A DNA stretch of 64,000 bases from Dehalococcoidia bacterium (GCA_965249605.1 OZ252245.1:830250-894249); one strand, 5' to 3'; counted from the stretch's first letter, positions 5,564 to 52,865 are shown. Notes: generated by a model not told the origin, from the letters alone. Translations and numbers: made by a program.

Positions 5564-5642
5564 GGAGAAGCGGTCCTCCTCGGTGTGCGGGTCGCGGCTA
5601 TAGTATCACGGGGCCAACGTCGTGCAAGAGGGCCGTCCACAG

Positions 5643-7741: not shown

Positions 7742-7745
7742 CAGC

Positions 7746-8909: not shown

Positions 8910-9147
8910 AGCTCGGGTATTCAGTTCTTTGGGTAGGATTAAGACAAACGTACCGTTAGAGTCCAATCTCGCAATATAAGCCAATTGAATGGTGTGAGCA
9001 GCAAGCACTGTTCTTTACCTGCAATCCTGCCCCGTCAACTAAAAGTTATGCTATAACAGAAGTGCCGCGATTTCGCGCCCTGCTGTCGTGCGGCTCAGGG
9101 GCGGCGCGGACGTTATCGTGAACAATCGCAAAGGAGTGAGGGACAAC

Positions 9148-16056: not shown

Positions 16057-16131
16057 TGGAGCCACCGGTCGGAATCGAACCGACGACCTGTTGTTTACGA
16101 AACAACTGCTCTGCCTCTGAGCTACGGTGGC
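16057..16131 (-). tRNA. tRNA-Thr (anticodon CGU)
   Basis: Hand-folded cloverleaf: GCCACCG TA GCTC AGAGGCA GAGC A GTTGT TTCGTAA ACAAC AGGTC GTCGG TTCGATT CCGAC CGGTGGC T CCA. CCA is encoded. Confidence 0.9.
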
Positions 16132-27400: not shown

Positions 27401-29149
27401 TTACCGGGGCCAGTCGTTGGAATGGGCGTCGGTCTCGACGTCCCCGGGACTGCTGAAGCGGAGCTCGGCGCGCAGGCGGTCCACCAGCCCCTCGACTTCG
27501 GTTTCGTCGGCCCTGTAGCGGAAGAGCGAGTGGCGCAACGCTTCGAGAGCCCCCTCCAGCTCCGGCCAGACCACCTCTCCGACGCCCAGGCGCTTGAGCC
27601 GCTCGCCCTCCTCCCGCTGGCGCACCAGGACCACCGTGTCCAGCTCCGGGTTCATGGCAAGGGCGTTGTGCGCGGTGAGCCAGGTCGAGACGGGGTCGGT
27701 GACGCAAACCACAAGGAGCCTGGCGTACCGCACGCTAGCCGCCTCCAGCACGCGCTCGTTGTGGCTGTCGCCGTGAAGGACGGTAAGGCCGCGCTCCCGC
27801 CACTGCCGGAGGAGGTTGGGGTCAAGGTCTATGGCAATGAATGGGACGTGATGCTCGCTGAGGACCTGCGCCACGAGGGTGCCGACGCGACCCAGGCCGC
27901 ACACGATGGCATGACCACGCATGTGGTGGGGCCGCGTTTCGAATTCAGGGTGGCCGATTCGGTAGGGACGGAGGGACCGGAAGCGGGAGCTCACCGATGT
28001 AAGGGTCGCGGCCCCGCCCGCCAGTATGCCCGGGGTTAGCGCCATCGTGATTACGGCGGATACGATGACCAGCGAAAAGAGTTCATCATCAACAATGCCC
28101 AACTTCAGCGCCGTGGCCGCGAGGAGAAAGCTGAACTCACCGATCTGCATCATGCCGAACCCCACCAGCATCGCCGTAAGCGGCAGATAGCCGAACGCCC
28201 GCCCGATAATCGCCGTGACGCAGAACTTGCCCACCAGCACGACTGCGACGATGGCCAGGACGGGCACGGGGTCCTGCATGATGTGCACGGGGTCTGTGAG
28301 CATGCCCAGGGAGACGAAGAACAGCGCGGCAAACGTGTCGCGGAGCGGGGTGATCTCGCCCAGGGTGCGGTGGCCAAACTCGGACTCGCTGAGCAGGACG
28401 CCGGCCACAAAGGCGCCTAGGGCGGCGGAAAGGCCGGCGGCGCTGGTGAGCGCTGCTGTGGTGAAGGAGATTGCCACCAGCGAGAGGATAAACATCTCGC
28501 GAGACCCAAGCTGCGTTACACGGTGGAGGAGCCACGTCAGGGCGCGGCCCCCCAGCAGGGCCATGCCTCCCAGCACGGCGGCCGCCTTGAGCAGGCCGAT
28601 GACCAGTTCGATGAGAAAGCCGCCGCCTTCGCCGCTCAGCGCCGGCAGGACAGCGATCATAGGGATGAAGGCTAGGTCCTGCACCAGGAGCATGCCGGTG
28701 AGAATGCGTCCGTGGAGGCTCAGCAGGTCTCCTCGGTCGTTCAGGGTCTTCAGGACGACCATCGTGCTGCTGAGTGAGATTGCCAGGGCCAGCGTCACAC
28801 TGCTGGGGGCATCGAGGCCCAGCAGGTGTCCTACGCCGTAGCCTATGGCCCCCATCAACGCAATCTGCGCGAGGGTCCCGAATACAGCGATGTTGCGGAG
28901 CTTCACCACGTCGCGGAAGGAGACCTCAACACCCACGGCAAAGAGCAGCAGGATCACCCCGAACTCGGCAAGCGACTCGACCGTCGCCTGATTGCCGATC
29001 ACCTCCAGCACGTGCGGGCCGATGATCATCCCGGCGGCCAGGTAACCCACCAGCATTGGCAGGCGCAACAAACGCGCCGCCAGCGATCCAACAAACGCGG
29101 CTGCGAAGATGATGACGATGTCCCAGAAGAGGGTAAGCTCGTGGGGCAT
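27401..29149 (-). CDS. Cation:proton antiporter (CPA2, Kef-type) with a C-terminal RCK/TrkA-N domain
   Basis: 582 aa. N-terminus LPMLVGYLAAGMIIGPHVL, about 12 TM segments, then HAIVCGLGRVG (Rossmann GxGxxG). Confidence 0.9.
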   Translation of the reverse strand: MPHELTLFWDIVIIFAAAFVGSLAARLLRLPMLVGYLAAGMIIGPHVLEVIGNQATVESLAEFGVILLLFAVGVEVSFRDVVKLRNIAVFGTLAQIALMGAIGYGVGHLLGLDAPSSVTLALAISLSSTMVVLKTLNDRGDLLSLHGRILTGMLLVQDLAFIPMIAVLPALSGEGGGFLIELVIGLLKAAAVLGGMALLGGRALTWLLHRVTQLGSREMFILSLVAISFTTAALTSAAGLSAALGAFVAGVLLSESEFGHRTLGEITPLRDTFAALFFVSLGMLTDPVHIMQDPVPVLAIVAVVLVGKFCVTAIIGRAFGYLPLTAMLVGFGMMQIGEFSFLLAATALKLGIVDDELFSLVIVSAVITMALTPGILAGGAATLTSVSSRFRSLRPYRIGHPEFETRPHHMRGHAIVCGLGRVGTLVAQVLSEHHVPFIAIDLDPNLLRQWRERGLTVLHGDSHNERVLEAASVRYARLLVVCVTDPVSTWLTAHNALAMNPELDTVVLVRQREEGERLKRLGVGEVVWPELEGALEALRHSLFRYRADETEVEGLVDRLRAELRFSSPGDVETDAHSNDWPR

Positions 29150-29279: not shown

Positions 29280-30554
29280 TTAGGACCCCTGGGGAGTCGA
29301 CGCGGACCGGGCGGCCCGAATGCGGTCGAGGCGGCCCCGAATGCCCGTCTCCGGCATGAGTATGCCGTTGATGAAGAGGGTGATGTTCAGTGGCGCAACG
29401 ATAAACAGGCCAATGAAGAGCGAACCAGTCGCTTCCTCCATGATCCCGACGAAGAGCGGGCCCCACATTGCGCTGAGAGGGAAAAGGGTGCGCATAAGGC
29501 CCTGCGCCACGGCGACCTCGCGGTGGGTGAGGCGCATGTCCATGGGGATGGTGAAGAGCACGGGAGGCACTGCCATCGCGGAGACGCCGGCGGTGAAGAG
29601 GAACAGCGCGGCAAGAGGTACGTTCGATGCCTGCAATAGCAGAAGGTAGCTCGCCGGCAGAATGAGACCGGGGACCCAGATGAAGGGCTTTCGCCTTCCC
29701 ATCCACTGGGATAGCGGTCCTGACGACAGCGTGCCCACGATGCCGCCGACGGGGAACGCGCTCATCAGCAAGCCCGCCGTTTCCAGGGAGATGTTCAGCT
29801 TTTCGATGGAGTAGGTGGGGTAGAAGGTAAGAATGGCGCCGAAGCAAATTGCGACGCCCACTTGCGCACTCGCGACGACCCAAAGCGACTTATGGCGTCG
29901 CAGCACGCCCGCCGGGTTTATCTCCGGCGGTGGAGGAGCTCCCTCGACCCTTCCCGCGCGGTTCTCGCGGCCAAGGAATACCCAGGACAGGGTGATGAGC
30001 AGCAGCATCGCCGCGGCCATGTAGTAATAGCCCCGCCATCCTCCCAACACCAAGATGAGCGCAGGCGCCGCCGCCAGTGACAGCGTCTGCCCGAATGAGC
30101 GGTTGCCGAAGTCCAGGCTGTTGATGGACGCGTAGAGCCGGGGCCGGAACCACTGCTGAATGAACATAACCTGTATCTGGGTCCTCGCGGCGGCAAGCAT
30201 GACAAAGAGGAACCTGCCGAGCATCAGGAGGAGCGCGCCGGGGGCCAGCGCCTGTATCAGCGTGGTCGCCGCCATGCCGAGACAGCATAGGAGCGTGATG
30301 AGCTTGGGGCTGTAGCGCGTAAGCCAGATGCTCGCGGGGAGCGCCATGAGGCCGAAGCCAAAGAAGCCTACGGTGCCCATGAGGCCCGCCTGGGTCGGGG
30401 TCAGGTTGAGCTCGTCCTTCCAGATAGGCACCATGACGCCCAGGGAAAAGAAGATGAGGTTGTTGACCTGGTCCATGGCCCATAGATGGGGCATGACTAC
30501 CCAGGCGTAACGGGGTTGGCTGGCGTTGCGCCCGATGTTTGGCTGCGCGCTCAT
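29280..30554 (-). CDS. MFS transporter (unrelated subfamily to the FFYGWVIV group)
   Basis: Polytopic membrane protein. Start tentatively at ATG 30554 (MSAQPNIGRN...). The track ORF extends to 30716, and the start is uncertain. Confidence 0.75.
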   Translation of the reverse strand: MSAQPNIGRNASQPRYAWVVMPHLWAMDQVNNLIFFSLGVMVPIWKDELNLTPTQAGLMGTVGFFGFGLMALPASIWLTRYSPKLITLLCCLGMAATTLIQALAPGALLLMLGRFLFVMLAAARTQIQVMFIQQWFRPRLYASINSLDFGNRSFGQTLSLAAAPALILVLGGWRGYYYMAAAMLLLITLSWVFLGRENRAGRVEGAPPPPEINPAGVLRRHKSLWVVASAQVGVAICFGAILTFYPTYSIEKLNISLETAGLLMSAFPVGGIVGTLSSGPLSQWMGRRKPFIWVPGLILPASYLLLLQASNVPLAALFLFTAGVSAMAVPPVLFTIPMDMRLTHREVAVAQGLMRTLFPLSAMWGPLFVGIMEEATGSLFIGLFIVAPLNITLFINGILMPETGIRGRLDRIRAARSASTPQGS

Positions 30555-31163
30555 GAGTGGGCGCTTCCAGGGAGGAGTTTCATCCCATCCATCTTGACAC
30601 GGAGGGAACCCCAACACAATTGCGAGGGCCGGGCGCCAGCCCTCGGATGCGGCTGCGTGATTCGAGGCTGGAACCTTCACGCCGCGCGTCGCTCTTCTAG
30701 CAATCGCTAGATACAAGCCGGATGTGTTCTATTCACCTAACCGATAACATATGTCCGCCCAGCAACGATCTTGCGAATATTGAAAATGTGCATGAATCGT
30801 CGTGAATTGGAAGAAAATGGGCGATATACAAAAATAACATCTGGCGAGTTAGCGATGTTGCGTAAATTCTTTGGCTATTGTCGTTGGGAATATGACGAAA
30901 TCGGTCGCCCGGTCGGTTTGACATGCCTTGCGCTCGGCCATAGCATCCCCTCGTCACCGGCAACACATTGAGGGCCGCTGCATTGCGTCCCTTACGCCTG
31001 AAGAACGGTTAGCGGCTATGTTTAGACAAATCGCACTCTACCAGAATAAATGGATCACCCCGGGTCAGGCCCTCGCCGACCTGGGCTTACGCAATCGCGT
31101 CCCCTGACCTCACTACCGGCCAACTTCTTTCTTCTCTCAGGCCTTACCAATCAGGAGGATGCT

Positions 31164-31529
31164 ATGCGTACTGTTTTGAAGTCAAAGATCCACCGTGGCT
31201 ACGTTACCGGCACGGGCTTGGACTATGTCGGCAGCGTTGAGATTGACCGTGCCCTGATGCAGAAGTGCGACCTCTGGGAATACGAGCAGGTCGTCATCTG
31301 CAACGTCAACAACGGCAACCGCTGGGAGACCTACGTCCTGCCCGCCGAGTACGGCTCCGGCACAATCGCCGTGCAGGGACCGGGCGCGCGCCTCTGCGAG
31401 CCGGGCGACATCGTCGTCATTCTCGCCTACGAGGTCACCGACGCCCCCATCGAACCCAAGCAAATCCTTGTCGACGAGAACAACCGCTTTACCGACTACC
31501 TTAGGACGAAGTATGAACAGAGGGTTTAG
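31164..31529 (+). CDS. panD: Aspartate 1-decarboxylase (pyruvoyl-dependent)
   Basis: Start at ATG 31164 (AGGAGG upstream). MRTVLKSKIHRGYVTGTGLDYVGSVEID carries the G-S self-processing site. Confidence 0.9.
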   Translation: MRTVLKSKIHRGYVTGTGLDYVGSVEIDRALMQKCDLWEYEQVVICNVNNGNRWETYVLPAEYGSGTIAVQGPGARLCEPGDIVVILAYEVTDAPIEPKQILVDENNRFTDYLRTKYEQRV

Positions 31530-32337
31530 CGAAGCCGAAACCGAGCGGTTCTACGACGAAGAGGACGCCATCTACCGCTCCTTCTGGGACTCCGAAGGCA
31601 GCCTGCACTGGGGCTACTTCGACGAGACCACCAGCGGAGACTTCATGCGGGCCTCTGCCAGGCTGGACAAGGTCATGGCGGCAAAGGGCCGCATCGACGC
31701 GAGCTCCCGCGTGCTGGATCTGGGATGCGGCAATGGTGTCACCTCGCGGTGGCTGGCCGCAACGTACGGGTGTCATGTAACCGGCATCGACCTGAGCAGT
31801 GTCCGTGTGAACAATGCCCGGGATATGGCGTCGCGGGAGTTTGAGGAGCTGCAGCGGTTGATGCGCTTCGAGCACGGCTCCGCGACGGACCTCCCCTTCG
31901 AGGACGGCGAGTTCACCCACGTTTGGAGCCAGGCCACCATCTACCATGTGCCGGACAAGGAGAAAGCCCTGCAGGAGTCCCGCCGCGTCCTGGCGCAGGG
32001 CGGCCTGCTGGTGCTGGACGACCTGCTGAAGCCCAAGCCGGTCGTGAGCGAGCAATCGCGCCAGTACGTCTACGACCGCCTGCTCTTCGACACGCCCCTC
32101 AGCTTTACCGGATACCAGGACTACCTGAAGCGGATCGGCTTCACCATCCTGGAGGCGGAGGATCTCTCTGTGTACCTGAAGCAGAGCTACCAGCACCTGG
32201 GCGCGATGGCCCGTGAGCATGCCCGTGGCGAGCTCGAGGAGAAGCTGACGGCGCTGAACTTCGCGTACGGGAAAATGGTGGAGGCTGTAGATTGTGGAGA
32301 GCTCGGCTGGGGCCTGTACATCGCGCAAGCAAGCTAG
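31513..32337 (+). CDS. SAM-dependent methyltransferase of the sarcosine/dimethylglycine N-methyltransferase-like (FYD..W....H.GYF) group
   Basis: ATG 31513 overlaps the panD 3' end by 17 nt. Motifs are FYDEEDAIYRSFWDSEGSLHWGYFDE, VLDLGCGNG, WSQATIYHVPDK and C-terminal GWGLYIAQ. They resemble SDMT as I recall it, but the N-terminal motif is shared with other methyltransferases of this fold. Confidence 0.8.
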   Translation: MNRGFSEAETERFYDEEDAIYRSFWDSEGSLHWGYFDETTSGDFMRASARLDKVMAAKGRIDASSRVLDLGCGNGVTSRWLAATYGCHVTGIDLSSVRVNNARDMASREFEELQRLMRFEHGSATDLPFEDGEFTHVWSQATIYHVPDKEKALQESRRVLAQGGLLVLDDLLKPKPVVSEQSRQYVYDRLLFDTPLSFTGYQDYLKRIGFTILEAEDLSVYLKQSYQHLGAMAREHARGELEEKLTALNFAYGKMVEAVDCGELGWGLYIAQAS

Positions 32338-32386
32338 CCTGCGCGAAGAGACTGACATAACGAGACCACGCATGGAGGACCAAGCA

Positions 32387-33013
32387 ATGACCGGGCAAAA
32401 CAGGGTGCAGTGGATCTACTCGTCCAAGGACGTCAACGAGCTTCAAGAGCGCTATGACGTTTGGGCAGCCGATTACGACTCGGACCTGGATCGCGACTTC
32501 GGTTGGTATGGCCCGCAGCTGGCCGCGGGAGTCCTCGAGAAGTACGCGCCGTCCACCGCGCGCATCCTGGACGCCGGAGCGGGCACGGGGCTGGTCGGCA
32601 AAGTGCTGAAGGAGAAGGGCTACTCCTCCATCGTCGCGATGGACCTCTCCGAGGGCATGCTGGAGATAGCCAGGAAGACCGAGGCGTACGAGAGCCTCGA
32701 CCAGATGACCATGGGCGAGACCCTTGGCTACGAGACGGACAGCTTTGACGCCGCAATTAGTGTGGGCGTGTTCACTGTCGGCCACGTACCGGCAAATGGC
32801 CTCGATGAACTGGTGCGCGTGGTCAAGCCGGGGGGGCACATCGTTTACTCGCTGCGCCCCGACGTGTACGAGGAGAACGGCTTCAAGGAGAAGCACGCGG
32901 AGCTAGAGGCCGCCGGCAAGGCCGCCGTCGTGGAGGCGACCGAGCCAGAGCACGTGCTGCCCATCGGCGAGCCGGAGGTGGAGCACCAGGTCTGGGTGCT
33001 CCGGGTTACCTAG
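32387..33013 (+). CDS. Class I SAM-dependent methyltransferase (Methyltransf_11, METTL27/WBSCR27-like), tandem copy A
   Basis: Start at ATG 32387 (GGAGGA upstream), 208 aa. Motifs: RYDVWAADYDSD, ILDAGAGTGLVG, VKPGGHIV. Confidence 0.8.
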   Translation: MTGQNRVQWIYSSKDVNELQERYDVWAADYDSDLDRDFGWYGPQLAAGVLEKYAPSTARILDAGAGTGLVGKVLKEKGYSSIVAMDLSEGMLEIARKTEAYESLDQMTMGETLGYETDSFDAAISVGVFTVGHVPANGLDELVRVVKPGGHIVYSLRPDVYEENGFKEKHAELEAAGKAAVVEATEPEHVLPIGEPEVEHQVWVLRVT

Positions 33014-33037
33014 TTGTACGGGCAAAGGAGGTCTGCC

Positions 33038-33664
33038 ATGACCGAGCAGAACAGGGTGCAGTGGGTCTACTCGTCCAGGGACAATGCGGAGCTTGAGGCC
33101 CGCTACGACGAGTGGGCGTCCGAGTATGACGCGGATGTCATCGACGAGTTCGGCTACTTCGGGCCGCAGCGAGGCGCGGATATCCTCCAGAAGTACGCGC
33201 CAACGAGCGCACACATCCTCGACGCCGGCGCGGGCACAGGCCTTGTCGGCGCGGCGCTGAAGGAGAAGGGCTACGGTTCCATCGTCGCCATGGACCTGTC
33301 CAACGGCATGCTGGAAGAGGCGAAGAAGACCGGCGCCTACGAGAGCTGCGACCAGATGGTGCTCGGCGAGACGCTGGGCTACGAGACCGCCAGCTTTGAC
33401 GCAACCATCAGCATCGGCACGTTCTCGCTCGCCCACGCGCCGGCCAGCGGCCTCGACGAGCTGGTGCGGGTCACCAAGCCCGGGGGCCACATCGTCTACT
33501 CCGTCCGGGCCGACGTCTATGTCGAAAGCGGCTTCCAGGCCAAGCACGAGGAGCTCAACGCCGCCGGCAAGATCACGATCGTGGAGGGGACGGCGCCGGA
33601 GCACCTGCTGCCCAAGGGCGAGCCTGAGCTGGAGCACCAGTTCTGGGTCCTCAAGGTCAACTAG
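33038..33664 (+). CDS. Class I SAM-dependent methyltransferase, tandem copy B
   Basis: Start at ATG 33038 (AAGGAGG upstream), also 208 aa. Colinear with copy A. Confidence 0.8.
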   Translation: MTEQNRVQWVYSSRDNAELEARYDEWASEYDADVIDEFGYFGPQRGADILQKYAPTSAHILDAGAGTGLVGAALKEKGYGSIVAMDLSNGMLEEAKKTGAYESCDQMVLGETLGYETASFDATISIGTFSLAHAPASGLDELVRVTKPGGHIVYSVRADVYVESGFQAKHEELNAAGKITIVEGTAPEHLLPKGEPELEHQFWVLKVN

Positions 33665-33695
33665 ACCAAGAACCCACGGCAACGCGAACCACAAG

Positions 33696-33724
33696 GGGCC
33701 CGGCGCACCGCTGGGCCCGTCTTG
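33696..33724 (+). terminator. Stem-loop after the methyltransferase genes
   Basis: GGGCCCGGC pairs with GCTGGGCCC (one G-U pair), followed by gtcttg. Confidence 0.45.
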
Positions 33725-33832
33725 ATGTACAGCCTCGCAGCTTGCCACGCGCGCCCCGATGCTGCTACCGTTCCGCTGCATCCCGCGTCGTCGAAGTGCT
33801 GCGCCGCGGGCGAGCATCGCATGGAGGCAACA

Positions 33833-34222
33833 ATGGGCAGAAGGCAGACCATCCACATCCCCGGCGTCGCCCACAATGCGCCGATACCCTTTGGCGCGCG
33901 CGTCGGCAACATCGTCTACAGCTCCGGCATCCAGGGCATCAACGCCGACAACGGCGAGCTGAGCGAGGACGTCGCCGAGCAGGCGCGGCAATGCTTCCGC
34001 AACCTTCGAACGTTCCTGGATCACGCGGGCGCCACACCGGACGACGTCGTGCGGCTCACGTGCTACTTGCAGGACTTTGGCGACCGAACCCACATCAACG
34101 CGCCGTGGCTCGAGATGTTCCCGGACGAGAACGACCGTCCGGCGCGGCACACCAGCCAGTACAACCCACCCCCCGGCGGCATGAAGGTGCAGATAGAGGT
34201 CATCGCGGTGGTGGAGGACTAG
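33833..34222 (+). CDS. RidA/YjgF-family (reactive intermediate/imine deaminase) protein
   Basis: Start at ATG 33833 (GGAGG upstream). Typical family blocks (VGNIVYSSGIQG, QARQCFRNLRTFLDHAGATPDDVV, VQIEVIAVV). Confidence 0.85.
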   Translation: MGRRQTIHIPGVAHNAPIPFGARVGNIVYSSGIQGINADNGELSEDVAEQARQCFRNLRTFLDHAGATPDDVVRLTCYLQDFGDRTHINAPWLEMFPDENDRPARHTSQYNPPPGGMKVQIEVIAVVED

Positions 34223-34259
34223 CGGGCGGGCTCCGTAGGATTGGAAAAGAGGAGGAAAC

Positions 34260-35225
34260 ATGAAGGCGGTACAGGTATTGGAGGCCGGCGGGCCGGAAGT
34301 CCTGAAGTACATGGACGTGGACGATCCGACGCCCGGTCCCGGCGAGGCGCTCGTTGAGCTGAAGGCGGCGGGCGTCAATTACATGGACGTCTACGTCCGG
34401 TCCGGCGCGAACAACCCCGCGCTCCCCATCATCCCCGGCGGCGAGGGCTCTGGCATCGTCGTGGAGGTTGGCGAGGGCGTGACCGAGGTGGCTGTCGGCG
34501 ACCGCGTCGCGTACACCGGCGCGGGGCGGTCGTATGCCGAGAGGGTCGTCGCGCCGTCGTGGCGGCTGATCAAGGTGCCCGACGATCTCGACATCGAGGT
34601 GGGCGCGGCGGTCATGCTCCAGGGCATGACCGCGCACTACCTCTCGAACTCCACGTACCCGCTCAAAGAGGGCGACACCGCGCTGGTGCACTCCGGCGCG
34701 GGCGGCGTCGGCCTGCTGCTCATCCAGATGGCCAAGATGCGGGGCGCGACGGTCATCACCACCGTCTCCACCGGCGAGAAGGCGGAGCTGGCGAAGGGCG
34801 CCGGCGCGGACCACGTCATCCTGTACACCCAGCAGGACTTCGCTGAAGAGGTAAAAAACATCACCGGCGGGGCCGGCGTGCAGGTGGTGTACGACGCCGT
34901 GGGCGCCGACACCTTTGAGGGCGGCATTGCCTGCCTGGCGCCCCGCGGCCTGATGGCCCTCTACGGCCAATCGAGCGGGCCTGTGCCGACGGTCACCCTG
35001 TCGACGCTGAACCCCAAGTCGCTGTACCTGACGAGGCCGGGCCTGAACTCGTACACGGCGACTCGTGAGGAGCTTGAAGCGCGCGCCGGAGAGGTGCTGG
35101 GCTGGGTGCAGTCGGGGAAGCTCAACGTGAGGGTGCACGGCCGCTTCGCGCTGCAGGACGCCTCGGAGGCGCACCGGCAGTTGCAGGGCCGGCTGACCAC
35201 CGGCAAACTGCTGCTGATTCCATAG
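34260..35225 (+). CDS. NADPH:quinone oxidoreductase, zinc-independent MDR family
   Basis: 321 aa: MKAVQVLEAGGPEVLKY, GAGGVGLLLIQMAK, C-terminal HRQLQGRLTTGKLLLIP. Confidence 0.9.
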   Translation: MKAVQVLEAGGPEVLKYMDVDDPTPGPGEALVELKAAGVNYMDVYVRSGANNPALPIIPGGEGSGIVVEVGEGVTEVAVGDRVAYTGAGRSYAERVVAPSWRLIKVPDDLDIEVGAAVMLQGMTAHYLSNSTYPLKEGDTALVHSGAGGVGLLLIQMAKMRGATVITTVSTGEKAELAKGAGADHVILYTQQDFAEEVKNITGGAGVQVVYDAVGADTFEGGIACLAPRGLMALYGQSSGPVPTVTLSTLNPKSLYLTRPGLNSYTATREELEARAGEVLGWVQSGKLNVRVHGRFALQDASEAHRQLQGRLTTGKLLLIP

Positions 35226-35337
35226 GCGAATGTACAATATCGCGATTCTTGTCTAGCGTGCGCGCGTGGAGTGGAGTACACTCGCGGGCAAGTTCTAGTT
35301 TCCGGAAAGTGCATAGACTCAAGAGGAGGCTTCAGCA

Positions 35338-36597
35338 ATGCTGACCACGCAAGAGACGGAATACCTCTGCAGAGTGGGCCCCGGCACGCCCATGGGCAAC
35401 CTGATGCGCCGCTTCTGGCACCCGGTGCTGCTCTCGAAGGAGCTGCCCGGACCGGACTGCCCGCCGCTGCGCTCGCGCATTTTGGGTGAGGACCTCGTCG
35501 CGTACCGTGACTCCAACGGCAAGGTGGGGTTGCTGGACAACAACTGCCCGCACCGGCGCGCAAGCCTGTTCTTCGGCAGGAACGAGGAGGCCGGGCTGCG
35601 CTGCGTCTACCACGGATGGAAGTTTGACACGAGCGGCGCCTGCGTCGACATGCCGTCGGAGCCGGCGGATAGCAACTTCAAGGACAAGGTCAAGATCAAG
35701 GCGTACCCGGTAAAGGAAGCGGGCGAGTTGATCTGGGCGTACATGGGGCCACCGGAGCTTGAGCCGCCTCTGCCGATGCTGGAGTACAACTCGCTCGGGG
35801 CGGACCAGGTGTCCGTGTCCAAGCTCCGCTATGAGTCCAACTACGTGCAAGTCGTCGAGGGCGACATCGACACGGTGCACGCCTCTCTGCTGCACAGCCG
35901 GTTGTCCGCGCTGGATGACGCCCCTACGGCGACGTCGCTGGCGGGCAAGTACTCGTACCCGGACCGCGCGCCCAAGTTCTTCGTCGAGGACACGGACGGC
36001 GGCATCCTCATCGGCGCGCGGCGCCGTGCGGAGGAAGACAGCTACTACTGGCGCATCTCCCGGTGGCTCTTCCCCTATTTCACCATGATTCCAAGGGAGC
36101 CGCATGGCATCACCCAGGGCGGCGCCATGGTGCCTATCGACGACGAGAACTGCTGGTTCGTGCACATCCGCTGGAACCCCTACGGCCCCTTGACTGAGGA
36201 CCAGCGGTACGAGAACAACTTCGACCTGAACATCAGGGACGACGGTTCCTGGCTGGCCATCGGCAACCGCCGCAACGACTACCTCATCGACCGGGAGAAG
36301 CAGCGGACCGAGTCTTACACCGGCATCGCCTTTGTGCGGGCGCAGGACTCCGCCATGACGGACAGCATGGGCACTATCGCCGACCGCTCCAAGGAGCACC
36401 TGGCGACGACAGACACGGCGATCATCCGCATGCGCCGGCGTCTCATCAAGGCGGCCCGGGCGTTGGAGGACGGCGTCGAGCCGTTCCCGCCGCACCACCC
36501 CGAGTCCTACAAGGTGCGCTCTGGCGGATGCGTGCTCCCAAGAGATGTATACTTCACCGAAGACACCGAGGTCTTGGCCGACATAACCGTGAAGTAG
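35338..36597 (+). CDS. Rieske non-heme iron oxygenase alpha subunit, phthalate-dioxygenase-like (class IA type)
   Basis: Rieske site CPHRRASLFFGRNEEAGLRCVYHGWKF and mononuclear Fe site DIDTVHASLLH. The N-terminus LCRVGPGTPMGNLMRRFWHP is typical of the phthalate-dioxygenase clade. Confidence 0.9.
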   Translation: MLTTQETEYLCRVGPGTPMGNLMRRFWHPVLLSKELPGPDCPPLRSRILGEDLVAYRDSNGKVGLLDNNCPHRRASLFFGRNEEAGLRCVYHGWKFDTSGACVDMPSEPADSNFKDKVKIKAYPVKEAGELIWAYMGPPELEPPLPMLEYNSLGADQVSVSKLRYESNYVQVVEGDIDTVHASLLHSRLSALDDAPTATSLAGKYSYPDRAPKFFVEDTDGGILIGARRRAEEDSYYWRISRWLFPYFTMIPREPHGITQGGAMVPIDDENCWFVHIRWNPYGPLTEDQRYENNFDLNIRDDGSWLAIGNRRNDYLIDREKQRTESYTGIAFVRAQDSAMTDSMGTIADRSKEHLATTDTAIIRMRRRLIKAARALEDGVEPFPPHHPESYKVRSGGCVLPRDVYFTEDTEVLADITVK

Positions 36598-36617
36598 ACG
36601 CTGCCCACCGGTAGCAG

Positions 36618-36665
36618 AGAGCCCCACGGCTCACCTCGCGGAGGGTCGTGGGGCTCTTCTTTTGT
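36618..36665 (+). terminator. Rho-independent terminator
   Basis: Perfect 11-bp stem: agagccccacg pairs with cgtggggctct, followed by tcttttgtg. Confidence 0.7.
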
Positions 36666-36695
36666 GCGGCGGACCCAGGGTAGGGAGAGCAATAC

Positions 36696-38015
36696 TTGGC
36701 GGAGAATCGCACGGGCGCGGAAGCGCAGCCTGAGCCGCAGTCGTGGCAGGGAAGGCTGCCCTTCTTCTACGGCTGGGTCATCGTCGTAATCGCCTTCATG
36801 ATGAGCTTCATGACGGCGGGCGTCGGCTGGTCGACGAGCGTCATCGCCGTGCCCATGCGCGACGACCTTGGCTGGAGCCTGTCGTCCATCTACCTTGGCC
36901 TGACGATGCGTGGGCTGGTTGGGGCCGGCGGGATGTTCCTGCTGGGGCGCTTCGCCGACCTGAAGCACGGTGCGCGCTCCCTGGCGGTCGTGAGCGGCGG
37001 TCTGTCGGCGGTGACGTTGATCGCGATCTCGCAGGTGGATTCGCACTGGGAGTTCCTCTTGCTCTATGGCGTCGTCGGCGGGATTACGACGGCGGGGACC
37101 GGCTTCCTGATCATGTCGGCGGTGGTGCCGCGCTGGTTCTTCCGCAAGCGGGGCCGCGCCGTGGCCTTCGCGACGATGGGGTCGGGCGCGGCGGCCTTCA
37201 TTCTGCCGCCTGTGATGGCGTTAATCTTTGAATACGTTGGCTGGCGGGGCACATGGGTGGTGCTGGGGGCCATGACGGCGATGTTCACCATCCTCCCCGC
37301 TTTCCTCATCTGGCGGCAGCCGGAGGACATTGGCCTAGTGCCCGATGGCAAGATCGAGCCCATCCCGGCAAACCGAGCCGGGGCGGTGCAGCACGTGCGC
37401 AACTACACCATGTCGGAGGCGCTCCGGACGCCGGTGTTGTTCGTTCTGGTGTTCGCCGTCGCGGCGGCGAGCCTCTCGCCCAACGGCGTGCCCGCCTCCC
37501 TGGTGCCCATGTACATCGACAAGGGGCACACTACTCAGGTGGCGGCGCTGGGCTTCAGCATCTACGGGTTGTTCAGCATGCTGGCCCGCTTCTTCTGGGG
37601 GTTTCTGGCGGAACGCTACCACATCCGGACGGTGATCATCGGCATTGGCGTGTTCACGGGGCTCGTCATGCCCCTGTTGATCTTTGTGGGCGGTTATCCT
37701 GCGCTGTTGTACTCCGCGCTCGCGGGCTTCGGCATTGGCGGCTTCATAGGAACGCAGACGTTGGTGTGGCCGGCGTACTTCGGGCGGACGCACCTGGGCG
37801 CGATCGTGGGCGTCAGCCGACCCTTCGCGACGGTGGTGAACGCGTCGGGGCCGCTGCTCATGGCACAGAGCTTCGACCGCACGGGCAGCTACAGCTTTGG
37901 CCTCTGGTGCATGGGGGTCTCCTGGCTGCTGTGCGCCGCCGCGATGTTCTTTGCCCGCCCCATGCGCCAGGTGGAACTGTCGCAGGAAGCGGCCAAGGCG
38001 CAGCAGGCTGGGTAG
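36696..38015 (+). CDS. MFS transporter, FFYGWVIV family, tandem copy A
   Basis: 439 aa, TTG start. RLPFFYGWVIVVIAFMM...VPMRDDLGWS, about 12 TM segments. Confidence 0.85.
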   Translation: MAENRTGAEAQPEPQSWQGRLPFFYGWVIVVIAFMMSFMTAGVGWSTSVIAVPMRDDLGWSLSSIYLGLTMRGLVGAGGMFLLGRFADLKHGARSLAVVSGGLSAVTLIAISQVDSHWEFLLLYGVVGGITTAGTGFLIMSAVVPRWFFRKRGRAVAFATMGSGAAAFILPPVMALIFEYVGWRGTWVVLGAMTAMFTILPAFLIWRQPEDIGLVPDGKIEPIPANRAGAVQHVRNYTMSEALRTPVLFVLVFAVAAASLSPNGVPASLVPMYIDKGHTTQVAALGFSIYGLFSMLARFFWGFLAERYHIRTVIIGIGVFTGLVMPLLIFVGGYPALLYSALAGFGIGGFIGTQTLVWPAYFGRTHLGAIVGVSRPFATVVNASGPLLMAQSFDRTGSYSFGLWCMGVSWLLCAAAMFFARPMRQVELSQEAAKAQQAG

Positions 38016-38028
38016 GGCATCGGCCCTT

Positions 38029-38077
38029 CGACAAGCCCTTCGAGAGCCTCAGGACCGGCCCAGGGCGAGCGGTAGGA
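38029..38077 (+). repeat. Degenerate REP-like repeat (CCCTTCGACAAG... family)
   Basis: cccttcgacaagcccttcgagagcctcaggaccggcccagggcgagcgg shares both ends with the 46143 element. Confidence 0.5.
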
Positions 38078-38114
38078 AAGGGTCGGCGTTAAGCAGTTCA
38101 ACCAGGGGTGGCGG

Positions 38115-39422
38115 ATGGCAGAACAGGATACAGATGAGCGCCCACAGTCGTGGCAGGCCAGGCTGCCCTTCTTCTACGGCTGGGTGATTGTGGCCATCAC
38201 CTTCGTGATGGGCTTCATGACGGCCGGCGCTTTCTGGGCGACCAGCGTCATCGCCGTCCCCATGCGCGACGACCTCGGCTGGAGCCTCTCGTCCATCTAC
38301 CTTGGCCTGACGATGCGCATGCTGGTTGGGGCGGGCTGCATAGTCGTGCTGGGGCGGTTCGCCGACCTCAAGCACGGCGCAAGGACGCTCGCCATCATCG
38401 GCGGGGTTCTGGCGGCGCTCTCTTTGGCAGGGGTGTTCTACGTCAATGAACTCTGGCAGTTCCTCGCCCTGTACGGCGTGGTGGGCGGCTTCTCTGTGGC
38501 CGGAGCCGGCTTCCTCATCATGTCCGCTGTCGTGCCGCGCTGGTTTTTCCGCAAGCGCGGCCGAGCCATGGCCTTCGCGACGATGGGGTCGGGCGCGGCG
38601 GCGTTCGTGTTGCCGCCGCTGCTTGCCTTCGTGCTGGAGCTTGTGGGGTGGCGCGGCACGTGGGTGTTCCTCGGCGTGCTTACGGGGGTCTTCACAGTGC
38701 TCCCGGCCTTACTGGTATGGCGGCAGCCGGAGGACGTCGGGCTGGAGCCTGACGGCGGCATCGAGCCGATCCCGGCCAACCGAGCCGACGCGGTTCAGCA
38801 CGTCCGCAACTACACCCTGAGGGAGGCGGTTCGAACGCCCGTCATGTGGGTGCTGATCTTTGCCCTGGCGTCGGCGAGCCTGTCGCCCAACGGCGTTCCC
38901 TCGACGCTCGTGCCCATGTTCATCGAGAAGGGCCACTCGACGCAGGCGGCGGCGCTGGGCTTCAGCATCTACGGCCTCTTCAGCATGCTGGCACGCTTCT
39001 TCTGGGGCTTCCTGGCGGAGCGCTACCACATCCGCACGGTAATCATCGGCATCGGCCTGTTCTCCGCAGTGGTGATGCCGATGCTCATATTCATGGAGGG
39101 CAACGTCGCGCTGCTTTACGCGGCGTTTGCGGGCTTCGGCATCGGCGGACTCATCGGCACGAATTCGCTCGTGTGGCCGGCCTACTTTGGCCGGAGCCAC
39201 CTTGGCGCGATCGTGGGCGTCAGCCGGCCCTTCGAAACAGCCGTCATGGCTTCCGGGCCGCTGCTGATGGCGCAGAGCTTCGACCGGACCGGCGGCTACA
39301 CGTTCGGCCTGTGGTGCATGGGGCTGTCCTGGCTGCTCTCAGCCGGCGCCCTGCTGCTTGCCCGGCCGCCTCGGCAGGTGGAGTCGTCGACGGAGGCGGC
39401 GAGGGCGCAGGAGGCCGGGTAG
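38115..39422 (+). CDS. MFS transporter, FFYGWVIV family, tandem copy B
   Basis: 435 aa, colinear with 36696-38015. By eye roughly three quarters of residues are identical. Confidence 0.85.
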   Translation: MAEQDTDERPQSWQARLPFFYGWVIVAITFVMGFMTAGAFWATSVIAVPMRDDLGWSLSSIYLGLTMRMLVGAGCIVVLGRFADLKHGARTLAIIGGVLAALSLAGVFYVNELWQFLALYGVVGGFSVAGAGFLIMSAVVPRWFFRKRGRAMAFATMGSGAAAFVLPPLLAFVLELVGWRGTWVFLGVLTGVFTVLPALLVWRQPEDVGLEPDGGIEPIPANRADAVQHVRNYTLREAVRTPVMWVLIFALASASLSPNGVPSTLVPMFIEKGHSTQAAALGFSIYGLFSMLARFFWGFLAERYHIRTVIIGIGLFSAVVMPMLIFMEGNVALLYAAFAGFGIGGLIGTNSLVWPAYFGRSHLGAIVGVSRPFETAVMASGPLLMAQSFDRTGGYTFGLWCMGLSWLLSAGALLLARPPRQVESSTEAARAQEAG

Positions 39423-41214: not shown

Positions 41215-42165
41215 ATGGCCCACCACGACGGAACCACCATCAGCGCCTACGAGTTCTTCCGGGAGTTCCCCGACGAGCAGGCCGCCATTGAGCGCGTCGA
41301 GCGCATCCGCTGGGATGGCGCGGTGACGTGTCCCTTCTGCGCGAGCGAGCGCACCACGCGGCTGAAGGACTACCAGTACCACCTCTGCAAGGACTGCCGC
41401 AAGAAGTTCACCGTCCGCACAGGCACCATCTTCGAGCGGTCGCACATCCCTCTGGACAAGTGGCTCTACGGTATGTACATCCTTCAGACGGCCCGCAAGG
41501 GCGTGTCCAGCCTTCAGTTGTCCAAGGAGCTGGGCATCACGCAAAAGTCCACCTGGTTCATGCTGCACCGGCTGCGCGAGGCGTGTGACGTGGAGGTGGA
41601 TATCATGGCGGGGCCGGTCGAAGCGGATGAGACGTACTTCGGCGGCAAGGAAGGCAACAAGCACGAGGCCAAGAAGCTGAACGCTGGACGCGGAGCTGTA
41701 GGCAAGGTCGCGGTGGCGGGGGTCAAGGACCGGACGACGGGCCAAGTCAAGGCGAAGGTGGTGGAGCACGTTGACGCGCCGACGTTGCAAGGGTTCGTGC
41801 ATGGCGCGACGGAGCCGACGGCGACGGTCTACACCGACGAGGCGCGAGCCTATGAGGGCCTGCGGCGACCTCACGCCGTCGTGAAGCACAGCGTCAAGGA
41901 GTTCGTGAACGAGATGGCCCACACCAACGGCATCGAGTCCGTGTGGGCGGTGATGAAGCGCGGCTACAACGGCGTCTACCACCACTGGAGCGCGAAGCAC
42001 CTGAAGCGGTACGTCAACGAGTTCACCTTCCGGCTCGGCAAGGGCAATGTTCGCCGGACGACGATGCAACGGTTGGACAGCCTTGTACGGGGCGCGATGG
42101 GAAAGCGGCTCACCTACGAGAAGCTGATAGGGCCGGAGTACACGCGCAGCCCCCGGATACTGTAG
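41215..42165 (+). CDS. IS1595-family (ISXO2-like) transposase
   Basis: 316 aa with an N-terminal zinc ribbon (CPFCASERTTRL..CKDCRKKFT), then GVSSLQLSKELGITQKSTWFMLHRLREA and DETYFGG. GGAGG lies upstream. Confidence 0.9.
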   Translation: MAHHDGTTISAYEFFREFPDEQAAIERVERIRWDGAVTCPFCASERTTRLKDYQYHLCKDCRKKFTVRTGTIFERSHIPLDKWLYGMYILQTARKGVSSLQLSKELGITQKSTWFMLHRLREACDVEVDIMAGPVEADETYFGGKEGNKHEAKKLNAGRGAVGKVAVAGVKDRTTGQVKAKVVEHVDAPTLQGFVHGATEPTATVYTDEARAYEGLRRPHAVVKHSVKEFVNEMAHTNGIESVWAVMKRGYNGVYHHWSAKHLKRYVNEFTFRLGKGNVRRTTMQRLDSLVRGAMGKRLTYEKLIGPEYTRSPRIL

Positions 42166-44954: not shown

Positions 44955-46139
44955 TTGAAGCGCAGTGAGGACAGGATTTTGACCACCCACGTGGGCGCGT
45001 TGCCCCGGCCGCAGGAGCTTGGCGCGATGGTGCTCGCGAAGACGACCGGGCGATTGCTCGACGCCGACCAACTCGCGGAGTGGCTGCGGAACGCGGTCGC
45101 CGACGTGGTGCGCGCGCAACTGGACGCGGGCATCGACATCATCAACGACGGGGAATACGGCAAGACCAACTGGAACAACTACATCGGCGGGCGGCTGTCG
45201 GGGTTCGAACACCGTGACCCCACGCCGGACGAGGTGACGGGGTCCGGGACACAGGCGGGGATCGTCGGGCGAGACCGGCGCGCCTTCGATGAATTCTACG
45301 CGGACTATGACGCCAACGCCGCACGCATCCGGCAGGCGCGCGCAGGCGGGGCCTCCGCCACGTCCCAGAACCTGGTCAACGTCGGGGCGGTGTCGTACAC
45401 AGGGCAGGCAGCCATCCAAACGGACGTCGACAACCTGCGGGGGGCAATCGGGTCGGCGCCGGTCGTGGACGTGTTCATGCCCTCCGTAGGCCCGGACAAC
45501 GTTTTGCCGCAGAGCCGCTACGAGCACTACGCAGGCGAGGCGGAGTACGTGGCGGCGGTGGCCGAGTCGATGCACTCCGAGTACAAGGCCATCACGGACG
45601 CTGGGTACATCCTGCAGATCGATGCGCCGGTGGGCAAGTTTGAGACGCAGGACATGACGCTGGAGGGCTTTCGCGCCCGGTTTGCCCGCAGTGTGGAGGC
45701 GCTGAACCACGCGCTGGAGGGCATCCCGGAGGAGCAGGTGCGTTTCCACCTGTGCTTCGGGAGCTGGCACGGCCCCCACGGCTACGACCTGGAGCTGAAG
45801 AACGTGGTGGACCTGGTGCTGCAGGTGAACGCGCAGGCCTACTCCATAGAGGCGGCAAACCCGCGACATGAGCACGAGTGGAAGGTCTGGCGCGACACCA
45901 AGCTCCCCGACGGGAAGATCCTCATGCCTGGGGTTGTGACCCACTCCACCAACACCATCGAGCACCCGGAGTTGGTGTCGGACCGGATCGAGCGCTTCGC
46001 CGGTGTGGTCGGGCGGCAGAACGTGGTGGCGAGCACCGACTGCGGGCTGGGGGCGCGGGTACACCCGCAGGTCGCGTGGGCCAAGCTGCGGACATTGTCG
46101 GAGGGTGCGCGGATGGCCAGCGGTCGGCTGTGGGGATAG
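44955..46139 (+). CDS. MetE C-terminal-domain-like Zn enzyme (paralog 3 of 5)
   Basis: TTG start with GAGGAGG upstream: MKRSEDRILTTHVGALPRP. Motifs: FHLCFGSW, NPRHEHEW, TDCGLGA. Confidence 0.85.
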   Translation: MKRSEDRILTTHVGALPRPQELGAMVLAKTTGRLLDADQLAEWLRNAVADVVRAQLDAGIDIINDGEYGKTNWNNYIGGRLSGFEHRDPTPDEVTGSGTQAGIVGRDRRAFDEFYADYDANAARIRQARAGGASATSQNLVNVGAVSYTGQAAIQTDVDNLRGAIGSAPVVDVFMPSVGPDNVLPQSRYEHYAGEAEYVAAVAESMHSEYKAITDAGYILQIDAPVGKFETQDMTLEGFRARFARSVEALNHALEGIPEEQVRFHLCFGSWHGPHGYDLELKNVVDLVLQVNAQAYSIEAANPRHEHEWKVWRDTKLPDGKILMPGVVTHSTNTIEHPELVSDRIERFAGVVGRQNVVASTDCGLGARVHPQVAWAKLRTLSEGARMASGRLWG

Positions 46140-48565: not shown

Positions 48566-49705
48566 ATGCTGCGGAGTACGGAACGCATTCTGACCATGCA
48601 CGCGGGCACGACGCCGCGAGTGCCTGACCTGCGGCAGATGGTGCTGGACAAGAGCTCAGGTGGGAAGGTGGACGAGGCCGATCTGACCGCTCGGCTGCGA
48701 GAGGCCATCGCGGAGGCGGTCGGGCGGCAGGTGGCGATCGGGCTGGACAGCATCAACGACGGCGAGCTCGGCAAGTCGAGCTTCACCAACTACGCGCGAG
48801 AGCGGCTGACGGGGCACGTGAACCGGCTGGCGCAGCTGGGCAACGTGCTGGCGAGGATCTACGGCCGGGACGCGGCGGACTTTCCCGACTACTTTGAGGG
48901 CCGGGGCAACCTGGGAGGCTTCGAGGTGGTGTGCGTCGGGCCGCTGGCCTACACCGGCCAAGAGGCCATCGCGGAGGACATCGCCAACTTCAAGGCGGCG
49001 CTGGACGGCGTCGACGGGCCGGAGCCGTACCTGCCCGCCGTCGCGCCGGGCACCATCGAGCACTGGATGAAGAACGAGCACTACGCCTCTGACGAGGAGT
49101 ACCTCTTTGCCATTGCCGACGCCATGCACGAGGAGTACAAGGCAATCGTCGACGCGGGTTTCCTTCTGCAGATCGACGACCCGGACCTGGCGGACGGCTG
49201 GCAGATACAGTCGGGGCTGACGGTGCCGGAGTACCGGAAGTTCGCGCAGCTCCGCGTCGAGGCGCTGAACCACGCCTTGCGGGACATCCCGGAGAGCAGC
49301 GTGCGCTTCCACATGTGCTGGGGGAGCTACAAGGGGCCCCACGTCCACGACATCCCGCTGGCGGACATTGTCGACATCATCCTGAACGTCAAGGCAGAGG
49401 GCTACTCCATCGAGGCGTCCAACCCTCGCCACGATCACGAGTACGAGGTGTGGCAGGACGTGAAGCTGCCGGAGGGCAAGCTGCTCATACCCGGCGTCAT
49501 CGGGCACGCAAACGACTTCATCGAGCACCCGGAGCTGGTGGCGCAGCGGCTGGTGCGCTACGCCGAGGCTGTCGGGCGCGAGAACGTCATGGCGGGGACG
49601 GACTGCGGCATCGGCTCGCGGGTGGGACACTCGTCGGTGTGCTGGGCCAAGTTCGAGTCGCTGGTGGAGGGCGCACGGCTGGCTACCAAGGAGCTGTGGG
49701 GCTAA
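48566..49705 (+). CDS. MetE C-terminal-domain-like Zn enzyme (paralog 4 of 5)
   Basis: MLRSTERILTMHAGTTPR; FHMCWGSY; NPRHDHEY; TDCGIGS. Confidence 0.85.
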   Translation: MLRSTERILTMHAGTTPRVPDLRQMVLDKSSGGKVDEADLTARLREAIAEAVGRQVAIGLDSINDGELGKSSFTNYARERLTGHVNRLAQLGNVLARIYGRDAADFPDYFEGRGNLGGFEVVCVGPLAYTGQEAIAEDIANFKAALDGVDGPEPYLPAVAPGTIEHWMKNEHYASDEEYLFAIADAMHEEYKAIVDAGFLLQIDDPDLADGWQIQSGLTVPEYRKFAQLRVEALNHALRDIPESSVRFHMCWGSYKGPHVHDIPLADIVDIILNVKAEGYSIEASNPRHDHEYEVWQDVKLPEGKLLIPGVIGHANDFIEHPELVAQRLVRYAEAVGRENVMAGTDCGIGSRVGHSSVCWAKFESLVEGARLATKELWG

Positions 49706-49720: not shown

Positions 49721-50875
49721 ATGCCTAGCGGCGTCGAGCGCATCCTGACCACGCACACCGGCAGCCTGCCGAGGCCAGCGGACCTGCTTGCCATGATCCA
49801 GGCCAAGGAGACGGGGCAGCCCTTCGACGCGGAGGAACTCGCTGCCGCGGTGCGGCGGTCGGTCGCGGAGGCGGTGGAGGCGCAGGCCAACGCCGGCATC
49901 GACATCGTCAACGACGGCGAGTTCAGCAAGCCGGGGTTCTCCGACTACATCAAGGACCGGGTGAGCGGCCTCGGGGGCGTGGACCCGTCTCCGCAGGCGC
50001 CAACGGAAGTGGACTTCCCCGAATTCGCGGAATGGTGGCGCGGCGTCGGATTCCTGGGCAGCGTCGCGTTCCCGCGGCCGGTGTGCGTCGGGCCGATGGC
50101 GTGGACGCACCCGGAGACGGTGGAGACGGACCTCGCCAACTTCAGGGACGCGCTAACGGGCGTCGACGTTGCGGGCGCCTTCATGACGGCATCGTCGCCG
50201 GGCATACTCGACCTGCGCATCGCCAACCGGCACTACGCCTCCGAGGAGGAGTACGTCTACGCCCTCGCGGAGATGATGAAGGTGGAGTATCGCGCCATTG
50301 CGAACGCGGGGTTCGTGCTGCAGGTGGACGCGCCGGAGATGGCGATGGGGCGCAACTGGGCGCGGTTCCGCGACGGCTCGCTGGGGGACTTCCGCCGGGT
50401 CATGGGCCTGTGGGCGGAGGCGCTGAACTACGCGCTGGGGGGCATCCCGGAGGAGCAGGTGCGCTACCACATCTGCTGGGGCAACAACGAGGGGCCGCAC
50501 GTTCGCGACGTGCCGCTGCGGGACATCGTGGACATTGTAATGCAGGTGCGCGCGGGCGCGTACTCCGTCGAGGCGTCCAACCCCCGGCACGCGCACGAGT
50601 GGCGGGTGTGGCAGGACGTGAAGCTGCCGGAGGGCAAGACGCTCATCCCCGGAGTCATCGACTCCACCACGAACTTCGTTGAGCACCCGGAGCTGGTGCG
50701 CGACAGGATCCTGAGCTACACCAACGTCGTCGGGCGAGACAATGTCGTTGCAAGCACGGACTGCGGGTTCGGCACCTTTGCGGGCCGGTCGCGCGTCCAT
50801 CCCACCGTCGTGTGGGCAAAGCTGCAGGCAATGTCGGAGGGCGCGAGGCTGGCAAGTCAGGAACTTTGGGGCTAG
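49721..50875 (+). CDS. MetE C-terminal-domain-like Zn enzyme (paralog 5 of 5, tandem with paralog 4)
   Basis: MPSGVERILTTHTGSLPRP; YHICWGNN; NPRHAHEW; TDCGFGT. It starts 15 nt after the previous stop. Confidence 0.85.
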   Translation: MPSGVERILTTHTGSLPRPADLLAMIQAKETGQPFDAEELAAAVRRSVAEAVEAQANAGIDIVNDGEFSKPGFSDYIKDRVSGLGGVDPSPQAPTEVDFPEFAEWWRGVGFLGSVAFPRPVCVGPMAWTHPETVETDLANFRDALTGVDVAGAFMTASSPGILDLRIANRHYASEEEYVYALAEMMKVEYRAIANAGFVLQVDAPEMAMGRNWARFRDGSLGDFRRVMGLWAEALNYALGGIPEEQVRYHICWGNNEGPHVRDVPLRDIVDIVMQVRAGAYSVEASNPRHAHEWRVWQDVKLPEGKTLIPGVIDSTTNFVEHPELVRDRILSYTNVVGRDNVVASTDCGFGTFAGRSRVHPTVVWAKLQAMSEGARLASQELWG

Positions 50876-52836: not shown

Positions 52837-52865
52837 GAATTACACGCCAAGCGAGGAGACGAAGC

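Follow-up and report, generated by a model that had tools for sequence, protein, structure and literature searches.

Our examination of 64,000 nucleotides (nt) from a Dehalococcoidia bacterium (GCA_965249605.1, OZ252245.1:830250-894249; this whole stretch is hereafter the window) identifies a compact cassette in which panD, the gene of a 121-amino acid (aa) pyruvoyl-type aspartate 1-decarboxylase of a Gln72/Cys47 subfamily (31164-31529, + strand), is followed by the genes of two distinct class I S-adenosylmethionine (SAM) methyltransferases, MT1 (31513-32337, +, 274 aa) and MT2 (32387-33013, +, 208 aa). The conserved core of this unit is panD-MT1-MT2, and the PanD proteins linked to MT1 form a dedicated subfamily. 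We tentatively propose, at somewhat under an even chance, that panD(Gln72)-MT1-MT2 is a bacterial de novo route from aspartate to beta-alanine betaine, one that many SAR202/Dehalococcoidia in the ocean, in sponges, and in soils would share. In the proposed scheme, the dedicated Gln72 PanD would decarboxylate L-aspartate to beta-alanine; MT1, made in a fixed ratio with PanD via the overlapping stop and start, would methylate beta-alanine at its amino group with SAM as donor; and MT2 would finish the series to beta-alanine betaine, much as GSMT and SDMT together produce glycine betaine. Decarboxylation would have to precede extensive N-methylation because the pyruvoyl enzyme needs a primary amine for its Schiff base. 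Nitrogen is the presumed methyl acceptor, and the split of the steps between MT1 and MT2 is likewise presumed. The end product would probably serve Dehalococcoidia/SAR202-type bacteria as a compatible solute whose de novo synthesis needs neither choline nor oxygen.

The coupling of panD to MT1 is visible in the window itself, where the ATG of MT1 sits 17 nt within panD, the TAG of panD ends at 31529, and AGGAGGA stands 5 nt before the panD ATG. We take 31513 as the right start of MT1, not a TTG at 31468, because the resulting N-terminus agrees with the N-termini of the homologues. MT2 has a GGAGG-type ribosome-binding site, and so has MT3 (33038-33664, +, 208 aa), a tandem paralogue that is 69% identical to MT2; MT1 and MT2 have only the Rossmann core in common (28% identity over 107 aa). 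A preliminary description of this DNA had reported the 17-nt overlap, the 274-aa MT1, and the two tandem 208-aa methyltransferases downstream of it, and all of these coordinates were reproduced. It had further stated that panD does not adjoin panB or panC, which agrees with our Pfam annotation: of 57 likely genes in the 64 kb, about 50 were annotated, and no panB, panC, or second panD was found among them; this lack of pantothenate genes nearby is in keeping with the proposed pathway.

To describe the cassette at the species level, we counted linkages in the best 80 of 280 confirmed loci, taken as one genome per GTDB species from a scan with the MT1 alignment; the MT1 proteins of these loci are 53-91% identical to that of the window, and homologues of the window proteins were then located in each. 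The gene immediately upstream of MT1 is panD in 64 of the 80 loci, and the panD stop overlaps the MT1 start in 61 of these 64, typically by 4, 17 or 20 nt, so that the overlap, which the preliminary description had named as something to look for in other genomes, is indeed a recurrent feature. An MT2-type gene is found directly downstream of MT1 in 56/80 and anywhere in the locus in 63/80, and panD, MT1, and MT2 are all present in 56/80. The trio is retained in an altered order, panD-MT2-MT1, in three loci (L019, L035, and L045), and two others (L024 and L044) carry tandem panD-MT1 duplications. The state with panD and MT2 extends over nearly all of a rough MT1 neighbour-joining tree. Among the best 120 matches per family no PanD-MT1 or MT1-MT2 fusion was found, the proteins having single-domain lengths throughout. 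Maintenance of the overlap and of the MT2 partner across dozens of species, together with the dedicated subfamily of the linked PanD, lends good support to the earlier suggestion that panD and the methyltransferases are one functional unit on beta-alanine. The suggestion that this unit has four genes does not extend beyond the immediate relatives of the window, as two MT2-like copies (MT2 and MT3) are present in 8/80 loci only, all of them close relatives; MT3 is a clade-local tandem duplicate of MT2, and the core is of three genes.

MT1 has more than 1000 homologues, of which the named ones are from Chloroflexi, Dehalococcoidia, or SAR202 metagenome-assembled genomes (MAGs), and the nearest genomes belong to uncultured Dehalococcoidia, with chromosomes of 2.5-2.9 Mb; the MT1 of the window has no exact-match record. 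One relative in the window's clade bears the isolate label RHO3, which we take to denote a sponge MAG series. The cassette was also found in MAGs labelled Latescibacterota (a 5.9-Mb chromosome), Hyphomicrobiaceae, and Myxococcota. In two further loci panD is frameshifted or contig-truncated: in L034, a Latescibacterota chromosome, it is split over two reading frames (5643-5986) before an intact MT1-MT2, and in L085, a 5.7-Mb contig, a 74-aa remnant (4920-5144) precedes an intact MT1-MT2. These decayed copies are either pseudogenes or long-read assembly errors.

The panD product is a PanD-type decarboxylase by sequence, scoring 126 bits against Pfam PF02261 (Asp_decarbox; cut-off 25) and aligning to Mycobacterium tuberculosis PanD (2c45) with E = 5e-25, the Gly24-Ser25 cleavage site included; its 98.9 bits against the equivalog TIGR00223 fall just under the cut-off of 106. 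We compared the window protein with its 120 closest relatives (n = 121), with residues numbered after the E. coli enzyme and cross-checked against the 2c45 alignment. K9, H11, Y22, G24, S25, R54, T57, and Y58 are present in the window PanD and in at least 119/121 members, Asn72 is replaced by Gln in 119/121 and Trp47 by Cys in 121/121, and Phe55 to Trp and Ala75 to Gly changes are found in almost all. The substrate loop therefore differs, in terms of these replacements, from the canonical Asn72-Gly-Ala-Ala-Ala, being Gln-Gly-Ala-Gly-Ala in the subfamily consensus and Gln-Gly-Pro-Gly-Ala in the window. Canonical PanDs of E. coli and M. tuberculosis share the fold family, the Gly-Ser self-cleavage site, and the catalytic residues with the window PanD, but the latter belongs to a separate subfamily (Gln72, Cys47, Trp55, and Gly75), lies below the TIGR00223 cut-off, and is specifically linked to MT1 instead of standing beside panB or panC.

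This specificity was seen in a reverse test, in which 80 metagenome contigs were fetched with the PanD alignment, canonical PanDs being included as a built-in control, and a contig was counted only if it continued for at least 200 nt beyond panD on the downstream side. An MT1 homologue follows 23/31 of the Gln72 PanDs and 0/44 of the Asn72 PanDs, which indicates that the MT1 linkage belongs to the Gln72 subfamily and not to PanD in general. The same control bears on whether this is a housekeeping panD serving pantothenate and coenzyme A (CoA) synthesis that has come by chance to share an operon with methyltransferases of some other pathway, such as quinone or lipid metabolism. Several homologues do carry the JGI label 'UbiE', and MT1-MT2 pairs occur without panD; against this, the stop/start overlap is kept in 61/64 species across 53-91% identity, panD and MT1 have been duplicated together in tandem, no panB or panC is near, and MT1 reaches only 59 of the 158 bits required for UbiE/MenG. 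From the overlap, the tandem duplications, and the 0/44 control, we consider the housekeeping explanation unlikely, leaving it only a very slim chance.

As its catalytic residues are conserved, we infer that aspartate is the substrate of this PanD. A shifted substrate, such as cysteate, cysteine sulfinate, 3-methylaspartate, or O-phosphoserine, with N-methylated taurine or phosphocholine among the products, is conceivable in view of the N72Q, A75G, W47C, and F55W replacements in or near the substrate loop, the sub-threshold TIGR00223 score, and the resemblance of MT1 to the phosphoethanolamine methyltransferases (PMTs) in fold and in a His/Arg/Tyr trio. CrpG, the PanD homologue of cryptophycin biosynthesis, reportedly decarboxylates 3-methylaspartate, which counts in the same direction. 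Nevertheless, all residues known to be needed for aspartate decarboxylation, Arg54, Thr57, and Tyr58 included, are kept, and the N72A variant of E. coli PanD is said to mature still, so that position 72 would be a tolerant one. A shifted substrate is thus improbable in our estimate.

MT1 matches Pfam Methyltransf_11/25/31, and its best NCBIfam family is SDMT (NF041675), which is a point in favour of the proposed pathway. The preliminary description had seen a resemblance of the MT1 motifs to sarcosine/dimethylglycine N-methyltransferases; membership of the GSMT/SDMT type did not hold, since 116.8 bits against a cut-off of 550 is no membership and the closest solved relatives are MitM, AtmM, and RebM, ahead of PMTs and a putative SDMT. 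The motifs on which that resemblance was based, FYDEEDAIYRSFWDSEGSLHWGYFDE, WSQATIYHVPDK, and GWGLYIAQ, are all in MT1, largely on invariant or near-invariant columns of the family. By sequence and fold together, the closest solved structures comprise MitM, AtmM, RebM, SpnF, the putative SDMT 2o57, TleD, and PMTs, and an AlphaFold2 model (pLDDT 90) has AtmM, MitM, 2o57, SpnF, RebM, and PfPMT as its fold neighbours. MitM is an N-methyltransferase. The fold group thus includes makers of quaternary amines (PMTs and the putative SDMT), which counts for the proposed pathway. Fold and PDB sequence searches were tried as a means of separating N- from O-methylation and proved not diagnostic, in line with the earlier caveat that the N-terminal motif occurs in O- and C-methyltransferases as well; the fold group fixes no acceptor atom. 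Scores against UbiE/MenG (TIGR01934, cut-off 158) were 59.1 bits for MT1, 43.9 for MT2, and 41.0 for MT3, all below membership.

A profile comparison by hhalign, in which the N-terminal Tyr region of PfPMT fell outside the alignment, pairs the invariant MT1 residues H145, R189, and Y185 with PfPMT H132, R179, and Y175. In PfPMT, His132 is catalytic (with Tyr19), Asp128 belongs to the catalytic set, and the phosphate is bound by the anion-binding Arg179 together with Tyr175 and Lys247. In the same comparison, MT1 has an invariant Met at the Lys247 position and Ala141 opposite Asp128, and as these two counterparts are missing, a phosphate-bearing MT1 substrate is argued against. The residue pattern would fit an amine acceptor with a single anionic group, which we offer only as a lead.

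MT2 matches Pfam Methyltransf_11/25. Among solved proteins, human METTL27/WBSCR27 (7qcb) comes first for MT2 both by sequence, with a phmmer E-value of 8.7e-20 across residues 22-183, and by fold, at rank 1 in Foldseek (template modelling (TM) scores 0.71/0.62, 25% identity). Human METTL27 is the closest solved relative of both MT2 and MT3, yet the identity is only about 25%. The next fold neighbour of MT2 is 8ys9, a bacterial phosphatidylethanolamine (PE) N-methyltransferase; as this enzyme turns a primary into a quaternary amine, the modelled similarity may also speak for the proposed pathway. The invariant H133 of MT2 aligns with H145 of MT1. Against NF041675, MT3 scored 19.4 bits and MT2 had no listed match.

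The two-enzyme logic of the scheme is that of the glycine betaine route of Halorhodospira, Aphanothece, and Methanohalophilus, in which GSMT and SDMT, two adjacent class I SAM methyltransferases, take a primary amine to a quaternary one. Two distinct SAM methyltransferases standing side by side as a conserved pair are likewise what we found here, MT1 and MT2 being adjacent in 56/80. MT1 differs in not being an SDMT member and MT2 is unrelated, although the putative SDMT 2o57 is among the fold neighbours of MT1. A coupled panD as precursor supply is a further difference from the GSMT/SDMT systems and would indicate beta-alanine rather than glycine. A second parallel is provided by the PMTs (PfPMT and plant PEAMT) and PmtA, which carry out triple N-methylation of an aminoethyl compound derived from a decarboxylated amino acid head group; the formation of choline head groups, in which serine or phosphatidylserine is first decarboxylated and then N-methylated three times, runs parallel to the route that we propose. 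PMTs are fold neighbours of MT1 (TM 0.73-0.81) and PmtA (8ys9) is the second-best fold match of MT2, but the identities are only 20-25%, and no lipid or phosphobase genes are linked to the cassette.

The chemistry proposed for the cassette is performed in plants by BANMT, which belongs to the plant O-methyltransferase family and carries out all three steps as one trifunctional enzyme. In Limonium latifolium, BANMT converts beta-alanine to N-methyl-, N,N-dimethyl-, and finally trimethyl-beta-alanine, as two papers cite (PMC9321204, PMC13577585). MT1, MT2, and MT3 are outside the BANMT family PF00891 (Methyltransf_2), for which none of the three has a match at E <= 0.01; if its function is common to the cassette, it would be convergent.

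On gene linkage and analogy, we consider an N-methylated beta-alanine to be the product with slightly better than an even chance, and a fully methylated betaine as the end product to have somewhat less than an even chance. The preliminary proposal of a path from aspartate to N-methylated beta-alanine therefore stands in part: comparative genomics supports the unit and its link to beta-alanine, while N-methylation and the end product are reasoned by analogy. Several observations weigh against the betaine pathway and should be considered together. MT1 is far below the SDMT cut-off, making its SDMT-likeness weak; its solved relatives include sugar O-methyltransferases (AtmM and RebM), a C-methyltransferase (TleD), and a cyclase (SpnF), and because its neighbours mix N-, O-, and C-methyltransferases with a cyclase, the fold leaves the methylated atom unfixed. 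The METTL27 match of MT2 carries no functional information, METTL27 being an orphan enzyme. The substrate of PanD could differ because its active-site loop is altered (QGAGA, not NGAAA). There are several MT1-MT2 pairs with no linked panD. Finally, in about 10 of the 80 loci an ATP-grasp ligase replaces MT2 directly after MT1, from which it follows that the end product is not uniform across loci.

The ligase of these variants is about 335 aa long with weak Dala_Dala_lig_C and RimK matches (about 24 bits), and the MT1s that precede it form one subclade; the loci concerned are L028, L043, L051, L054, L056, L063, L066 (7014-8021), L075 (6916-7941), and L082, and also L036 and L072. An ATP-grasp enzyme after clustered MT1s suggests that the MT1 product can be ligated, so that these loci may make a ligated derivative of beta-alanine, and it is a reason to ask whether beta-alanine is indeed the precursor while the product is something other than a betaine, be it partly methylated (N-methyl- or N,N-dimethyl-beta-alanine), esterified with methyl at the carboxyl group, or a building block for conjugation. 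O-methyltransferases occur within the fold group of MT1, and MT2 and MT3 have weak generic matches to BioC-type carboxyl O-methyltransferases, although these are far under the cut-off (49 vs 342 bits). The dominant and apparently ancestral arrangement is nevertheless MT1 with a second, different methyltransferase (56/80), which fits successive methylation of one nitrogen better, and no genes for nonribosomal peptide synthetases, polyketide synthases, or other assembly enzymes are conserved beside the cassette. We regard such a non-betaine product as unlikely, albeit with an appreciable chance, and retain beta-alanine betaine as our tentative proposal. The panD-less pairs include a subclade (L015, L016, L021, L029, and L041, at about 7500-8500) in which a conserved alpha/beta hydrolase (about 301 aa) comes after MT1-MT2; the hydrolase of that cluster is present in 19/80 loci overall.

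A CPA2-type cation/proton antiporter (Na_H_Exchanger and TrkA_N domains) is encoded in the window at 27401-29149 (-) and is at most 6 kb from the cassette in 11/80 loci, L043, L075, and L082 among them. L107 has a Gln72 panD with no methyltransferase, and about 300 nt downstream of this panD a CPA2 antiporter is encoded (3669-5651). Such neighbours may hint at a link to ion or osmotic homeostasis. We did not adopt the antiporter as independent support for osmoregulation, with only 11/80 loci having it and six of these in the window's own clade.

Other neighbours of the cassette are context and not core. A divergent transporter of the major facilitator superfamily (MFS; Pfam MFS_1; 29280-30716, -) is found upstream in the window's clade only (L001, L003-L008, L010, and L014). 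Downstream, genes for RidA, a quinone oxidoreductase, a Rieske/LigXa_C oxygenase, and two MFS transporters (33830-39422, +; Pfam/NCBIfam) were considered as members of the unit and set aside, being co-located only at MT1 identities of at least 73%; they are not core because they are absent from all more distant panD-MT1-MT2 loci. The hairpin that the preliminary description had placed after MT3 exists, as a GC-rich one with a 14-bp interrupted stem (33692-33724, +), and could be a terminator, though not a convincing one: a U-tract is missing, the region folds no better than shuffled sequences (z = -0.8), and a terminator scan made no + strand call there.

Upstream of panD, a promoter scan found a promoter-like site, TTGACA-17 nt-TAGCAT (30918-30946, +), whose 10/12 matches are a match to consensus only. 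In an alignment of 9 relatives from the window's clade TTGACA never varies, and TAGCAT, TAGGAT, or TACTAT comes after it at equal spacing in most of them. The leader of about 215 nt that follows (30947-31163, +) shows conservation within the window's clade alone and is missing from distant loci; it contains a strongly conserved 60-nt block at about 31050-31108, which includes an imperfect palindrome, GGTCAGGC..GCCGACC. A CTTCY run in the leader can pair with the Shine-Dalgarno sequence of panD, and RNAalifold keeps this helix in nearly all 9 sequences, with little covariation in the alignment. A riboswitch or other known RNA was looked for upstream of panD and discarded, as 30650-31200 has no Rfam match even at E <= 1; at gathering thresholds, Rfam finds only a transfer-messenger RNA (tmRNA) and a tRNA in the whole window.

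The remainder of the window carries five Meth_synt_2 paralogues with weak matches of 49-69 bits to this catalytic domain of cobalamin-independent methionine synthase, at 2660-3862 (-), 9088-10299 (+), 44955-46139 (+), 48566-49705 (+), and 49721-50875 (+). Rieske/LigXa_C oxygenases are at 35338-36597 (+) and 52494-54152 (+); the former faintly resembles GbcA, a glycine betaine monooxygenase (18.6 bits), and the two MFS transporters beside it are of the lactate/oxalate-formate type. The many MetE-like (Meth_synt_2) paralogues along with the Rieske/LigXa_C oxygenases are a SAR202-like signature. An IS1595-family transposase (DDE_Tnp_IS1595 and zinc ribbon; 41215-42165, +) is absent at the matching place in L001 and L003. 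Housekeeping genes comprise the tmRNA gene (149 bits; 62243-62592, -) beside smpB (62640-63143, -) and a tRNA gene (16060-16131, -).

SAR202/Dehalococcoidia rank with the most abundant bacterial groups in the dark ocean and in sponges. Beta-alanine betaine is found in marine particulate metabolomes, and SAM-dependent methyl labelling of it has been described in marine communities (PMC9321204). Its synthesis is ascribed to the plant methyltransferase only (PMC9321204; PMC13577585, September 2026). The preliminary description was aware of no such pathway in bacteria, and our searches agree: under several names, the searchable full-text literature yielded no bacterial beta-alanine betaine pathway and only the plant methyltransferase, and it held nothing relevant on a link between SAR202 or sponges and beta-alanine betaine. 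The SAR202 cultivation paper (PMC10444878) makes no mention of betaine, osmolyte, compatible solute, or pantothenate biology. Stepwise N-methylation to a betaine is known; what would be new here is the enzymes, the precursor-supply arrangement, and the host group.

If the proposal is true, the cassette would provide a microbial source for the beta-alanine betaine of marine metabolomes and a genetic marker of its bacterial production, by a betaine route that is independent of oxygen and choline. PanD would split into CoA-related and osmolyte-related subfamilies, and automatic calls of 'pantothenate biosynthesis' would then need revision. In addition, MT2 would give METTL27-like methyltransferases their first small-molecule function and thereby a lead for the orphan METTL27.

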